Sequence record: PZ402301.1
DNA from: a phage
Reading direction: 5' to 3' (one strand)
Length of the DNA stretch: 64,000 nucleotides
In this document: piece by piece, positions 37,218-64,000 of the stretch
How the letters are laid out: each line of letters opens with the position of its first letter
Numbering within the stretch: position 1 is the first letter of the stretch
Notes under the pieces: generated by a model
The model's database searches: none
Told to the model about the DNA's origin: nothing
What the model saw: only the letters and a program-made list of their open reading frames with translations
Program-made: the position numbers and the translations under genes

Positions 37218-37450
37218 AGTACGCCATACACCCTTTGTGCTTCAACTAATCCATCAAAATCCAGTTTAAGATGTGTTATTTGGTCACCATCACCTGGATT
37301 CACAATTACTAATACTGAACGAGGAGTTTCGGTAATAACACGAACCGATGTTTCTGGAAATCGTTCAGAAACCTTATTTACCAATTCCTGAGCAAATAGT
37401 TTAACTTTTTCTTGGAATTCTTTAACAGTAATTGGTTTTTCACTTAGCAT
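37214..37450 (-). CDS. cd.2: hypothetical protein (positional cd.2)
   Basis: 78-aa ORF. Confidence 0.55.
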   Translation of the reverse strand: MLSEKPITVKEFQEKVKLFAQELVNKVSERFPETSVRVITETPRSVLVIVNPGDGDQITHLKLDFDGLVEAQRVYGVL

Positions 37451-37971
37451 GTTGATCCTAGCTCCTTACTTTCAACGTTTTTAACTAATTTGACAGAAAC
37501 TAATTCAGCATCTCGGGTAATCATTACCGGACCTTCTTCATACTCTTCAAGATATTCTAGAGCTTTCTTTTTAGCTTCTTCCTTCGTATCAGTTTGAGCA
37601 TAGATATAGAACATACAACCAGTAATACCTACTACTTTCCACTTAATTTCTTTATCAGCTTTAATTTCAAATTTACTTGTAGAATCATCTTTTTGAACTT
37701 CTTCGAAAAAAGAATATTCTAACATATAAGCAATTGAAAATAACGGGCTAACTTTATAGGATTCACCCATTACATCAACAGCTTTATACCAACAATCATC
37801 AATTTCACGTTTAATGCTAATAACATTTTTCGCAGGATCTATTTTTACTTTAAATGAATTTTCCCCAATAAACTGGGCAATTCGTTTATTAGCCCCGCAA
37901 GTTTCATTAAAAATATCTTTATATCCAGCTTTAAAGCGATAAACCTTATCTTCTTCAAACCATTCGCTCAT
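37444..37971 (-). CDS. cd.3: hypothetical protein (positional cd.3)
   Basis: 175-aa ORF. Confidence 0.6.
   Translation of the reverse strand: MSEWFEEDKVYRFKAGYKDIFNETCGANKRIAQFIGENSFKVKIDPAKNVISIKREIDDCWYKAVDVMGESYKVSPLFSIAYMLEYSFFEEVQKDDSTSKFEIKADKEIKWKVVGITGCMFYIYAQTDTKEEAKKKALEYLEEYEEGPVMITRDAELVSVKLVKNVESKELGSTC

Positions 37972-38701: not shown

Positions 38702-38702
<1 letters not shown>
38505..38702 (-). CDS. hypothetical small protein downstream of pseT
   Basis: 65-aa ORF; start overlaps pseT stop region. Confidence 0.5.
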
Positions 38703-39927
<1,225 letters not shown>

Positions 39928-39930
39928 TTA

Positions 39931-40161
39931 TTATTTCTCAACCAATGATTGAATATAATCATGTAGGTCTTTAGATGCTTTACCCCACTTATTTTGGTAT
40001 TCATTTTTAAGATTAGCACGTGATTGAGCTAATAAAACATCATTAGTTGGAGGTAAAGATTCTAACCGCTGAATCTGGCGTCCGTAAATCATTGCAGCCA
40101 TCTCGGATTCATAAATCAATCCTTTGAGATGTTCAAATTGATGCCATGAAATCATTTGCAT
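39931..40161 (-). CDS. hypothetical small protein
   Basis: 76-aa ORF. Confidence 0.5.
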   Translation of the reverse strand: MQMISWHQFEHLKGLIYESEMAAMIYGRQIQRLESLPPTNDVLLAQSRANLKNEYQNKWGKASKDLHDYIQSLVEK

Positions 40162-40451
40162 TTATCCTCTTTTAACTCTTGGCGATAATAACATATCATA
40201 GTTTTCTGATCATGTACATATCGTTTTACATCATTAAGCCAAATACGAAATTCCTGGGAATCTTCGAATGGCATACCGACCCAAGCTTTACCATCGATAA
40301 CTTTAACTTGCCAAGATAGTTTAGCTTCATCATATGACTTTATCTGCACAGGCCAATTAGGATGAACTGTTTCTTTCTTTACTTCTAGAGGATTTGTCGA
40401 ACAACCAACTAGAAGACCAATAGATAATATTACTGCTGATAGTTTAATCAT
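40152..40451 (-). CDS. pseT.2: outer-membrane lipoprotein, predicted o-spanin (Rz1 equivalent)
   Basis: 99 aa; N-terminal signal peptide with lipobox LLVGC; ATG overlaps stop of the upstream i-spanin-like gene (ATGA); naming from recall that T4 spanins are PseT.3/PseT.2. Confidence 0.6.
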   Translation of the reverse strand: MIKLSAVILSIGLLVGCSTNPLEVKKETVHPNWPVQIKSYDEAKLSWQVKVIDGKAWVGMPFEDSQEFRIWLNDVKRYVHDQKTMICYYRQELKEDKCK

Positions 40452-40801
40452 TTAGAAAGGTCCTGGATGTCTTCTGCGAACTTGTTGAAGGAGTTGTTGA
40501 TTTGTTTTTCAACCAATCCTGGCTTATGAGCCACCACATCCGCCTTCTTTGCATCTTTGCGCAGTTTTTCATTTTCACGCTCAATAGCAGCAATTGCCTC
40601 ACGATTTTTATTATTCATCGCATCAATATAATTATACTGAATTCGCAAATTATCTAATGCTAAAGCGTTTTCATTGGATGTTTTTGTAATTTCAGTAACC
40701 GATGTTTCTAATCTTTCTACCTTATTTTTTAAAATAATAGATGTTCCGCCAAATGCTATCACAAGTAATAGCAAGCCTGCTGTCGTATTACTTAATTGCA
40801 T
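40448..40801 (-). CDS. pseT.3: inner-membrane protein with periplasmic coiled coil, predicted i-spanin (Rz equivalent)
   Basis: 117 aa; N-terminal hydrophobic anchor AGLLLLVIAFGGTSIIL followed by heptad-like charged helix. Confidence 0.6.
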   Translation of the reverse strand: MQLSNTTAGLLLLVIAFGGTSIILKNKVERLETSVTEITKTSNENALALDNLRIQYNYIDAMNNKNREAIAAIERENEKLRKDAKKADVVAHKPGLVEKQINNSFNKFAEDIQDLSK

Positions 40802-41298
40802 AAAGTTTTAATAACCTCTACAATATCGTCTTGAGAAAGACCGTTAATTAAAATATGATGTTCAGCCGGAGATTTAGAAATTTTAAAGCATGCCTCAACA
40901 TCTTCTGCCATATCTGATGCACTACGATTTGGATTACTAATTCCAAGACGATGTTTTCCCGTCAAAGGATTAACGATGATGTAGCATTTACAGTTATTGA
41001 TATGAACATTAGGTTGAGTCTGATTAATGAACACATCACAATCATATTTCGCAAGCTGATTTTCTAAAAAGACTTTCATCTCCTCAACCGCATCAGGAAG
41101 CATATCACGGGCTTGCTCAAGACGACGATTTCGATATTCTTTAATAGTCGTTTTCCGCTTGACTTGCTTAGCTAAATCTTTCTTAAGATCGGTGATATAT
41201 CCAACTCGACGATTTCCTTTAAATACAGAAATCCCATCTGTAGTATCACCGTATGCTTCAACGACCATTTCAGTAGTAATAAGCTGTAAATCCATCAT
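40792..41298 (-). CDS. alc: Alc, inhibitor of host transcription on cytosine-containing DNA
   Basis: 168 aa (167 from second ATG) matching T4 Alc size and position between pseT cluster and rnlA. Confidence 0.8.
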   Translation of the reverse strand: MMDLQLITTEMVVEAYGDTTDGISVFKGNRRVGYITDLKKDLAKQVKRKTTIKEYRNRRLEQARDMLPDAVEEMKVFLENQLAKYDCDVFINQTQPNVHINNCKCYIIVNPLTGKHRLGISNPNRSASDMAEDVEACFKISKSPAEHHILINGLSQDDIVEVIKTLCN

Positions 41299-41302
41299 AA
41301 AG

Positions 41303-41356
41303 TCCTCATGTTATGTCAGTAAGACTACTATAACACAACACGAGGGACTTGTAAAC
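41303..41356 (-). promoter_or_regulatory. early promoter cassette (copy B of 54-bp repeat) upstream of alc
   Basis: 51/54 nt identical to 25532-25585; GTTTAC -35 at 41351-41356, -10 TATAGT, leader GAGGA. Confidence 0.55.
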
Positions 41357-41359
41357 AGC

Positions 41360-42947
<1,588 letters not shown>

Positions 42948-47922: not shown

Positions 47923-48282
47923 TCAATACGGTTTAGCATCAAATTTTCTTTCGATTTCAGGAGTGAAATATAATTCTTTACCACGTTTGGAAAAACGACC
48001 AATAATATGATAATTATTCTCATCAAACGTGATATTACCAATATCCATAGCTTTCAACCAAATATCGATATTTCTATCTAGTTTTATATCAAAATTCCAA
48101 TACGGAGAACTATTACCAAAAATACTACAAGCGGATTCAGTGAAACAACTGCTATAAATCTTGCCTTTAGGAACTACTAATTGATAGACGCCTTTAATAA
48201 ACTGAGGACCCTGCCATTTTGGTTGTTTCGCGTCTTTTTCTAATAGAATAGGGTAATAATTAAAATTCATATTTTCCGCCAC
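47923..48282 (-). CDS. hypothetical protein inserted between frd and td
   Basis: 119-aa ORF with no recognisable motif, filling a 412-bp gap between frd stop and td start. Confidence 0.55.
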   Translation of the reverse strand: MAENMNFNYYPILLEKDAKQPKWQGPQFIKGVYQLVVPKGKIYSSCFTESACSIFGNSSPYWNFDIKLDRNIDIWLKAMDIGNITFDENNYHIIGRFSKRGKELYFTPEIERKFDAKPY

Positions 48283-62866: not shown

Positions 62867-62882
62867 AGGGGCTTCGGCCCCT
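62867..62882 (+). other. AGGGGC-UUCG-GCCCCU hairpin between gene 37 stop and gene 38 RBS
   Basis: 6-bp GC stem with UUCG tetraloop 5 nt after gene 37 stop; no strong U-run, overlaps the region immediately 5' of the gene 38 start. Confidence 0.45.
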
Positions 62883-62893
62883 TGGGGGTTTAT

Positions 62894-63670
62894 ATGGCAG
62901 TAACAGGACCGTGGGTAGGATCGTCTGCAGTAGTTAATACAGGACAAAATTGGATGGGTGGCGCGGCCCAACGATTAAGAATGGGCATTCCGTTTTGGAT
63001 GAGTAATATGATAGGTCGATCTGTTGAAATAATTCACACGCTTGGAGCAGACCATAACTTCAATGGTCAATGGTTCCGAGATAGATGTTTTGAGGCAGGT
63101 AGTGCACCTATAGTGTTTAATATCACCGGAGATTTAGTATCATATTCTAAAGATGTTCCTTTATTCTTCATGTACGGAGATACACCAAATGAATATGTTC
63201 AACTGAATATACACGGTGTAACGATGTATGGCCGTGGCGGGAATGGCGGTAGCAATAGTCCTGGCTCAGCTGGAGGTCATTGTATTCAAAATGATATTGG
63301 TGGGAGACTAAGAATTAATAATGGCGGAGCTATTGCTGGCGGCGGTGGCGGCGGCGGTGGCGGATATTATTCTCCTTTTTCACAAATGAGATTGACATTT
63401 GGCGGTGGTGGCGGTCGTCCGTTTGGCGCGCCGGGCGGATCTATTGATATGCAATCAGGAGCAACTGCCGGTACTATTTCTGCGCCTGGCGCAGGGTCTG
63501 TGAACGGTATCTATAGCGGCGGGTCTGGTGGTGAAGTTGGCTCCGCAGGAGGTAGATGTAATATTCGTGGTCAAGGATATGAATACGATGGCGGAGCTGC
63601 TGGTTATGCCGTCATAGGGTCTACGCCAACGTGGCAAAACGTTGGAGCAATATATGGTCCAAGAGTATAA
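62894..63670 (+). CDS. 38: gp38 receptor-recognising adhesin (T2-type, glycine-rich motifs)
   Basis: ORF-track start 62882 is TTG; ATG at 62894 gives 258 aa with multiple glycine-rich motifs ([52 protein letters not shown]) separated by variable segments. Confidence 0.85.
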
Positions 63671-63700: not shown

Positions 63701-64000
63701 ATGGCAGCACCTAGAATATCATTTTCGCCCTCTGATATTCTGTTGGGTGTTCTAGATCGCTTGTTCAAAGATAACGCTACCGGGAAAGTTCTTGCTTCCC
63801 GGGTAGCTGTCGTAATTCTTTTGTTTATAATGGCGATTGTTTGGTATAGGGGAGATAGTTTCTTTGAGTACTATAAGCAATCAAAGTATGAAACATACAG
63901 TGAAATTATTGAAAAGGAAAGAAATGCACGCTTTGAATCTGTCGCCCTGGAACAACTCCAGATAGTTCATATATCATCTGAGGCAGACTTTAGTGCGGTA
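63701..64000 (+). CDS. t: holin t (5' partial, continues beyond window)
   Basis: ATG at 63701 preceded by AGGAGGG; translation MAAPRISFSPSDILLGVLDRLFKDNATGKVLASRVAVVILLFIMAIVWYRGDSFFEYY... matches T4 holin N-terminus including the single TMD. Confidence 0.9.
   Translation, partial: MAAPRISFSPSDILLGVLDRLFKDNATGKVLASRVAVVILLFIMAIVWYRGDSFFEYYKQSKYETYSEIIEKERNARFESVALEQLQIVHISSEADFSAV

Follow-up and report, generated by a model that had tools for sequence, protein, structure and literature searches.

The window analysed here, a 64,000-nucleotide stretch of phage DNA (sequence record PZ402301.1), is a T4-like (Tequatrovirus) genome segment, in which two short adjacent genes for an i-spanin and an o-spanin lie on the minus strand between alc and an ortholog of pseT.1. 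The features of the pair and its surroundings are the following.

38702..39610, flanking gene pseT, polynucleotide kinase
39931..40161, minus strand, pseT.1 ortholog, the neighbour downstream of the o-spanin gene
40152..40451, minus strand, o-spanin gene (ORF, PHROG 812), ortholog of T4 pseT.2, encoding a 99-aa precursor and an 83-aa mature lipoprotein
40158..40160, minus strand, codon of o-spanin Cys98, invariant across nine relatives
40191..40193, minus strand, codon of o-spanin Cys87, invariant across nine relatives
40401..40451, minus strand, predicted lipoprotein signal peptide of the o-spanin (codons 1-17, from sequence patterns), with the lipobox LVGC at codons 14-17 (40401-40412)
40448..40451, minus strand, ATGA overlap of the i-spanin stop TGA and the o-spanin start ATG, read directly from the sequence
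40448..40801, minus strand, i-spanin gene (ORF list, PHROG 739, identity with T4), ortholog of T4 pseT.3, 117 aa
40466..40537, minus strand, conserved i-spanin motif VVAhKPGLVEKQINnSFNKFAEDi (codons 89-112, from the alignment), the putative o-spanin-binding end
40730..40780, minus strand, predicted transmembrane anchor of the i-spanin, AGLLLLVIAFGGTSIIL (codons 8-24, best 17-aa Kyte-Doolittle window)
40792..41298, minus strand, alc (Pfam ALC, E 1.4e-91)
41327..41355, minus strand, sigma-70 or T4-early-type promoter-like site by consensus match (TTTACA, 17-nt spacer, TG-extended TATAGT)
41360..42520, ORF of the size of rnlA (RNA ligase 1), in the position of rnlA in T4 and GEP001
63702..64000, plus strand, 5' portion of holin gene t, truncated by the window end and read from the sequence, beginning MAAPRISFSPSDILLGVLDRLFK

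Read on the minus strand, the i-spanin gene is the first of the pair and the o-spanin gene follows downstream, and the ATGA at 40448-40451 makes the TGA of the former and the ATG of the latter overlap, with 4 nt in common. Furthermore, the i-spanin gene shares 10 nt with the end of alc, which lies upstream, and the o-spanin gene another 10 nt with the pseT.1 ortholog. The initial annotation had described the ATGA overlap, which is indeed present, and had placed both ORFs correctly, although it left unmentioned that they are on the minus strand. The encoded proteins are MQLSNTTAGLLLLVIAFGGTSIILKNKVERLE...DLSK (117 aa, 40801..40448) and MIKLSAVILSIGLLVGCSTNPLEV...EDKCK (99 aa, 40451..40152). Plus-strand ORFs over the spanin region are of 31-51 aa, all TTG-initiated and without support, and an Rfam search of the whole window at gathering thresholds gave no RNA family match.

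The i-spanin is made up of an N-terminal transmembrane segment (TMD), a long helix α1, a break at K93-P94 and a C-terminal helix α2. Residues 8-24 are its top 17-residue hydrophobic stretch, with a mean Kyte-Doolittle value of 2.38, and a hydrophobic N-terminal segment is found in all nine i-spanin relatives compared. The protein is free of cysteine, and after position 25 charged residues make up 35% of it. A single-sequence AlphaFold (AF2) model with a mean pLDDT of 87.2 consists of helices 3-91 (TMD and α1) and 94-116, and its helix break at residues 92-93 coincides with the invariant K93-P94; since the model is essentially one long helix, structural fold matches to it are without meaning. 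By simple arithmetic, with a rise of 1.5 Å for each residue, the roughly 65 residues of the long helix that lie in the periplasm would reach about 10 nm. All of this is in agreement with the membrane-anchored 117-aa protein with a charged helical region that had been described initially. The N-terminal tail MQLSNTT holds no basic residue and K25, K27 and R30 come only after the TMD, so the positive-inside rule alone does not predict an N-in/C-out topology, and the N-in orientation that we infer is taken from the known function of the T4 ortholog.

The o-spanin begins MIKLSAVILSIGLLVGC, in which LVGC fits both the pattern [LVI][ASTVI][GAS]C and a PROSITE-like lipoprotein pattern, with Cys17 as the predicted site of lipidation; the proposed lipobox-bearing 99-aa lipoprotein and its signal peptidase II site are thus borne out at the level of consensus prediction. 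The residue at +2 is Ser18, and as this is not Asp the protein appears to be without an inner-membrane retention signal. The six reading frames of the whole window contain 453 ORFs that start with Met and reach 60 aa or more, and of these the o-spanin alone has the lipoprotein pattern. Its signal peptide is its only strongly hydrophobic stretch, the C-terminus being charged (...RQELKEDKCK), and its Cys87 and Cys98 are the periplasmic cysteines that the pair has available for homotypic disulfides. A C-terminal proline-rich region, which the initial annotation had named as something to look for in the lipoprotein, is absent, since the mature 83-aa protein has just 4 prolines and none of them after residue 61. 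The single-sequence AlphaFold model of the mature o-spanin has a mean pLDDT of 41.7 and is unusable, and its strand-strand-helix-strand pattern was given no weight; this low-confidence pattern agrees with the published β-α-β prediction. Unimolecular spanins (u-spanins) carry a C-terminal TMD as well as a lipobox, and a u-spanin was considered for the 99-aa protein and rejected, as it has no C-terminal hydrophobic segment.

Both proteins are near-identical to a known pair of T4. The i-spanin matches T4 PseT.3 in 111 of 117 residues (95%) and the o-spanin matches T4 PseT.2 in 97 of 99 (98%), and the T4 RefSeq record lists pseT.3 at 135428-135781 (117 aa) and pseT.2 at 135132-135431 (99 aa), each as 'Rz-like spanin'. 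Over their full lengths the two proteins furthermore match PHROG 739 (i-spanin, E 3.6e-37, residues 1-117) and PHROG 812 (o-spanin, E 7.2e-43, residues 1-99), which are both called 'Rz-like spanin' and filed under the lysis category, and other Rz-like PHROGs are matched only weakly (phrog_214, E 3.5e-5; phrog_89, E 6e-3). Pfam and NCBIfam scans of both spanins returned sub-threshold noise only, the Rz and Rz1 families of Pfam did not match the pair at E up to 0.1, and no protein of solved structure related to either one turned up in a PDB sequence search. Below threshold, the i-spanin resembled coiled-coil families and the o-spanin an Lpp-type signal peptide. With neither a curated Pfam or NCBIfam model nor a solved structure at hand, the family assignment rests on the PHROGs, on pairwise identity and on annotation. 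Judged by sequence, the pair belongs to the T4 PseT.3/PseT.2 spanin families, already known and named in RefSeq, and the separated i-spanin/o-spanin identity proposed initially holds. The T4 pair was reportedly identified as the equivalent of Rz/Rz1 earlier, by Summer et al. in 2007.

The locus is widely conserved. A search with 1.4 kb of DNA spanning the pair gave matches in 501 phage records, of which 497 cover 80% or more of the query, at 90-99% DNA identity and nearly always at 95-99%; the records are overwhelmingly T4-like phages of Escherichia, Shigella and Yersinia, and in many of them the first gene goes by the name of spanin Rz or i-spanin and the second by that of outer membrane lipoprotein Rz1 or o-spanin. 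With tblastn, a relative of the o-spanin was found in 1232 phage records and one of the i-spanin in 921. The gene order rnlA-(alc)-i-spanin-o-spanin-...-pseT recurs in the representatives of seven genera, namely Tequatrovirus (T4, GEP001), Mosigvirus (PNJ-9), Moonvirus (Merlin), Jiaodavirus (KEN39), Krischvirus (JEP8), Slopekvirus (KLB13) and Karamvirus (PS49), as does the 4-nt stop/start overlap, which was present in nine of nine Straboviridae pairs checked from these genera, the start of the JEP8 i-spanin having been corrected before the comparison. Across the seven genera the i-spanin is free of cysteine and the o-spanin has a lipobox and two C-terminal cysteines, which are spaced by 11 positions except in Slopekvirus (8). 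Alignment of nine relatives shows M1, L14, C17, P34, D53, D74, R77, C87 and C98 to be invariant in the o-spanin and K93, P94 and L96 in the i-spanin, of which the C-terminal motif VVAxKPGLVEKQINxSFNKFAED is the only conserved part; in Klebsiella and Serratia phages, i-spanin matches are confined to residues 92/93-117, at 73-80% identity. As this C-terminal helix is the only part of the i-spanin conserved across genera, it would seem to be the part in contact with the better-conserved domain of the o-spanin.

Both spanin ORFs are under purifying selection. The dN/dS values of the i-spanin and the o-spanin are 0.30 and 0.03 for the window against T4, 0.32 and 0.04 against GEP001, and 0.26 and 0.08 against Mosigvirus, and purifying selection is hence some 4- to 10-fold stronger on the o-spanin. 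It could be argued that AT-rich sequence yields many short ORFs and that the two reading frames are open by chance and not genes at all. This notion is however refuted by the conservation data, in that both ORFs have strong PHROG matches and hundreds of orthologs with conserved overlap and synteny, besides the selection on them and the fact that the T4 proteins have been seen by western blot by Kongari et al. 2018 (PMC6139136), and the probability we would give it is practically nil.

The window's proteins differ from those of T4 by the substitutions Q2H, L3V, T6F, N26H, S42A and D50N in the i-spanin, located in the N-terminal tail, directly behind the TMD and in variable parts of helix α1, and by N20K in the variable linker of the o-spanin. 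These changes would be the grounds for supposing that the genes are indeed spanin orthologs but have been impaired in this phage, with the outer membrane being disrupted by something else. However, no invariant alignment position is hit by any window-versus-T4 substitution, other phages that have been isolated and form plaques carry an o-spanin without any difference and an i-spanin of 98.3% identity, and the dN/dS values are well below 1, all of which renders such an impairment highly improbable.

Experimental work on the T4 pair by Kongari et al. agrees with a role in lysis. On a plasmid, T4 pseT.3/pseT.2 were as effective as Rz/Rz1 in restoring lysis to a lambda Rz-am/Rz1-am lysogen, and PseT.2 carrying C87S, C98S or both was lysis-defective (PMC6139136). 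With this complementation by the near-identical T4 alleles and the predicted signal peptidase II site, neither of the refuting conditions named in the initial annotation applies. The same study reports no covalent dimer of PseT.3 and a disulfide-linked dimer of PseT.2 only when PseT.3 is present, and it gives secondary-structure predictions of α1 and α2 with a very short linker between them for PseT.3 and of a variable linker followed by β-α-β for PseT.2 (PMC6139136). The antibodies employed there were directed against residues 74-87 of PseT.3 (ERENEKLRKDAKKA) and 71-84 of PseT.2 (WLNDVKRYVHDQKT) (PMC6139136), and both epitopes are unchanged in the window's proteins.

With respect to expression, the early-type promoter match lies within the 61 nt that separate rnlA from alc, upstream of the spanin pair, and is likely, going by its sequence, the start of an alc-pseT.3-pseT.2-pseT.1 transcript. 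On the minus strand from about 35.7 kb to 51.5 kb, there was no exact match to the late-promoter sequence TATAAATA and none to the MotA-box pattern of middle promoters. The initial placement of the pair in the early pseT-alc region agrees with these pattern matches, and its distance of about 23 kb from holin t at the window end is confirmed, since t starts at 63702, which is 22.9 kb away. In T4, pseT.3 ends at 135781 and t lies at 160221-160877, with 24.4 kb between them, and because T4 shares this layout the arrangement is the standard published one and no peculiarity of the window; Kongari et al. class the T4 pair as being of 'separated' architecture, away from t and e (PMC6139136).

The early location might nonetheless be taken to mean that the pair serves an envelope function early in infection, such as superinfection exclusion or receptor masking (cf. 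Llp of T5), and that its acting as a spanin in the lambda assay is only a by-product. The early-type promoter match, the lack of an exact late-promoter or MotA-box match on the strand of the pair for more than 10 kb upstream, and the distance to t all fit such a role. The full replacement of lambda Rz/Rz1 by the T4 alleles and the loss of lysis upon point mutation of the conserved cysteines, both published for the T4 pair (PMC6139136), are however in poor agreement with it. Furthermore, a complex that spans the periplasm would require just such a pair of genes, with a conserved i-spanin C-terminus and a conserved o-spanin domain, and no other lipoprotein ORF in the window could act as a spanin; we therefore regard an early envelope function as very unlikely. 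Early-type expression is in itself compatible with a spanin, as the protein would be harmless until the wall is gone.

Comparison with other spanin systems places the pair firmly with T4 PseT.3/PseT.2, with which it shares the lengths of 117 and 99 aa, the TMD, the lipobox LVGC, Cys87 and Cys98, the ATGA overlap, alc upstream, pseT.1 downstream and a distance of some 23-24 kb to t. Apart from the few substitutions, which are conservative or at variable positions, T4 differs in being without the window's extra 106-aa ORF between pseT.1 and pseT. Lambda Rz/Rz1 follows the same design, a type II inner-membrane helical protein with a small outer-membrane lipoprotein, but there the o-spanin gene is embedded in the +1 frame of the i-spanin gene, whereas the genes of the window stand side by side with 4 nt in common; moreover, in contrast to the lambda proteins, the window's i-spanin is cysteine-free and its o-spanin has twice the length, is predicted to fold as β-α-β and has no proline-rich region. 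Membership of the lambda Rz/Rz1 sequence family was accordingly rejected, there being no Pfam match, no embedding of the genes and no proline-rich region, the last of which means that the o-spanin is no sequence relative of lambda Rz1. The published account of the T4 pair adds that both o-spanin cysteines are essential in T4, unlike in lambda, and already remarks on the structural differences (PMC6139136). A more distant relative is found in gp079/gp080 of the T5-like Proteus phage PM135 (Demerecviridae). Its o-spanin is 28% identical to PseT.2 (E 5e-5) and keeps the lipobox cysteine, the two C-terminal cysteines, P34, D53, D74 and R77, but the two genes have 37 nt in common, an overlapped architecture, and the i-spanin, at 16% identity, is barely alignable and has two C-terminal cysteines. 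The unimolecular spanin gp11 of T1, as described in the same study, likewise bears a lipoprotein signal for the outer membrane and plays the same part in lysis (PMC6139136); it is however a single protein, while in the window the anchor and the lipoprotein come from two separate genes.

Taken together, we are highly confident that the pair is a T4-type two-component spanin that disrupts the outer membrane of the host in the last step of lysis. Both genes would be translated from one mRNA by way of the ATGA, probably transcribed from the early-type promoter upstream of alc. The single N-terminal helix of the i-spanin would anchor it in the inner membrane, from where the periplasmic helix of about 65 residues would extend, followed by the short conserved C-terminal helix. 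The o-spanin, as predicted from its sequence, would be exported, lipidated at Cys17 and cleaved by signal peptidase II, and sorting would then place it in the inner leaflet of the outer membrane. There its folded periplasmic domain may be bound by the C-terminal helix of the i-spanin, for which the cross-genus conservation of that helix and the dependence of PseT.2 dimers on PseT.3 are indirect evidence, and by virtue of this binding the complex would bridge the periplasm through the peptidoglycan mesh, with disulfides of Cys87 and Cys98 finally linking o-spanin dimers. The lambda spanin is restrained by peptidoglycan and acts through a membrane fusion step, and both notions are carried over here by analogy. 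Once holin T and endolysin E have destroyed the cell wall, the spanin complexes would be freed, and their collapse would probably fuse, or otherwise disrupt, the two membranes and so complete lysis.

A further suggestion is that T4-type spanins use a fusion mechanism distinct from that of lambda, or that the position of the pair in the early alc/rnlA-pseT block is purposeful. The folded β-α-β domain of the o-spanin, the cysteine-free i-spanin and the obligatory double disulfide isomerisation point to the former, and the strictly conserved 4-nt coupling in the RNA-repair block of seven genera to the latter. We consider this suggestion rather unlikely, and neither part of it is new as a question; if true, an early stockpiling of spanin complexes could suit lysis inhibition.

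There is nothing new in the spanin pair as such. It is the standard, textbook 'separated' spanin of T4, with a name in RefSeq and genetic tests behind it, and therefore of little weight as a discovery. It does serve as a positive control, in that a spanin was recognised from raw sequence by its TMD, its lipobox and its stop/start overlap, and this far from the holin. For work on T4-type spanins, what matters is that the i-spanin is conserved only in its last 25 or so residues, after the invariant Lys-Pro break, and that the o-spanin is, by the four- to tenfold difference in selection, the more strongly constrained of the two proteins.

The cytoplasmic tail of the i-spanin, formed by residues 1-7 (MQLSNTT; 40781-40801, minus strand), contains no basic residues at all, and K25, K27 and R30 follow the transmembrane domain on the side that is required to be periplasmic. 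The T4 i-spanin shows the same pattern, with the tail MHVSNFT. A lysine occupies position 3 in the relatives from Mosigvirus, Moonvirus, Karamvirus and Slopekvirus, and also in the Krischvirus i-spanin once its start has been corrected. This correction concerns locus L007 of Escherichia phage JEP8 (596-1419), where the annotated i-spanin comprises 88 aa, lacks a transmembrane domain and has its start placed too late; read from the in-frame ATG at 647, the protein is 107 aa long and includes such a domain. Furthermore, the o-spanin ORF annotated in JEP8 is 150 aa long with its lipobox, LSSC, at residue 68, preceded by an N-terminal extension of about 50 aa with a second transmembrane-like segment, and an internal methionine at around nt 1087 may be the true start.

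Further ORFs of unknown function lie in the window:

39931-40161, minus strand: pseT.1, 76 aa, PHROG 2347
39607-39927, minus strand: 106-aa ORF, PHROG 2364 (E 2e-58)
37444-37971, minus strand: 175-aa ORF between cd.2 and cd.3, PHROG 3710
47923-48282, minus strand: 119-aa ORF between td and frd, PHROG 1928

The first of these, pseT.1, shares 10 nt with the stop end of the o-spanin gene. It is kept directly 3' of the spanin genes in Tequatrovirus, in Mosigvirus with 78% identity and in Jiaodavirus with 38%, while no clear conservation of it was found in Slopekvirus or Karamvirus. The 106-aa ORF is located between pseT and pseT.1, where T4 has no gene, since its pseT ends at 134907 and its pseT.1 starts at 134908; in the equivalent position, the Tequatrovirus phage GEP001 has a 100-aa ORF. 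The 175-aa and 119-aa ORFs are likewise absent from the matching T4 intervals.

Conversely, the T4 mobile elements of the region are missing from this phage (42975-44144, 44145-44195, 47018-47878, 51465-51563). Neither nrdB (389 aa) nor td (286 aa) is interrupted, so both are free of introns and of I-TevI and I-TevIII. In addition, the gap between nrdB and nrdA is just 51 nt and, unlike in T4, contains neither nrdB.1 nor mobE, and that between genes 32 and 59 is just about 100 nt and lacks the segG found in T4.

A further difference from T4 concerns the gene preceding the holin gene t:

62882-63670, plus strand: 262 aa, match at E 9e-111 to PHROG 2056 ("tail fiber protein; host specificity")

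Whereas gp38 of T4 is a 183-aa assembly factor, the 262-aa product encoded here is an adhesin of the T2/T6 gp38 type.
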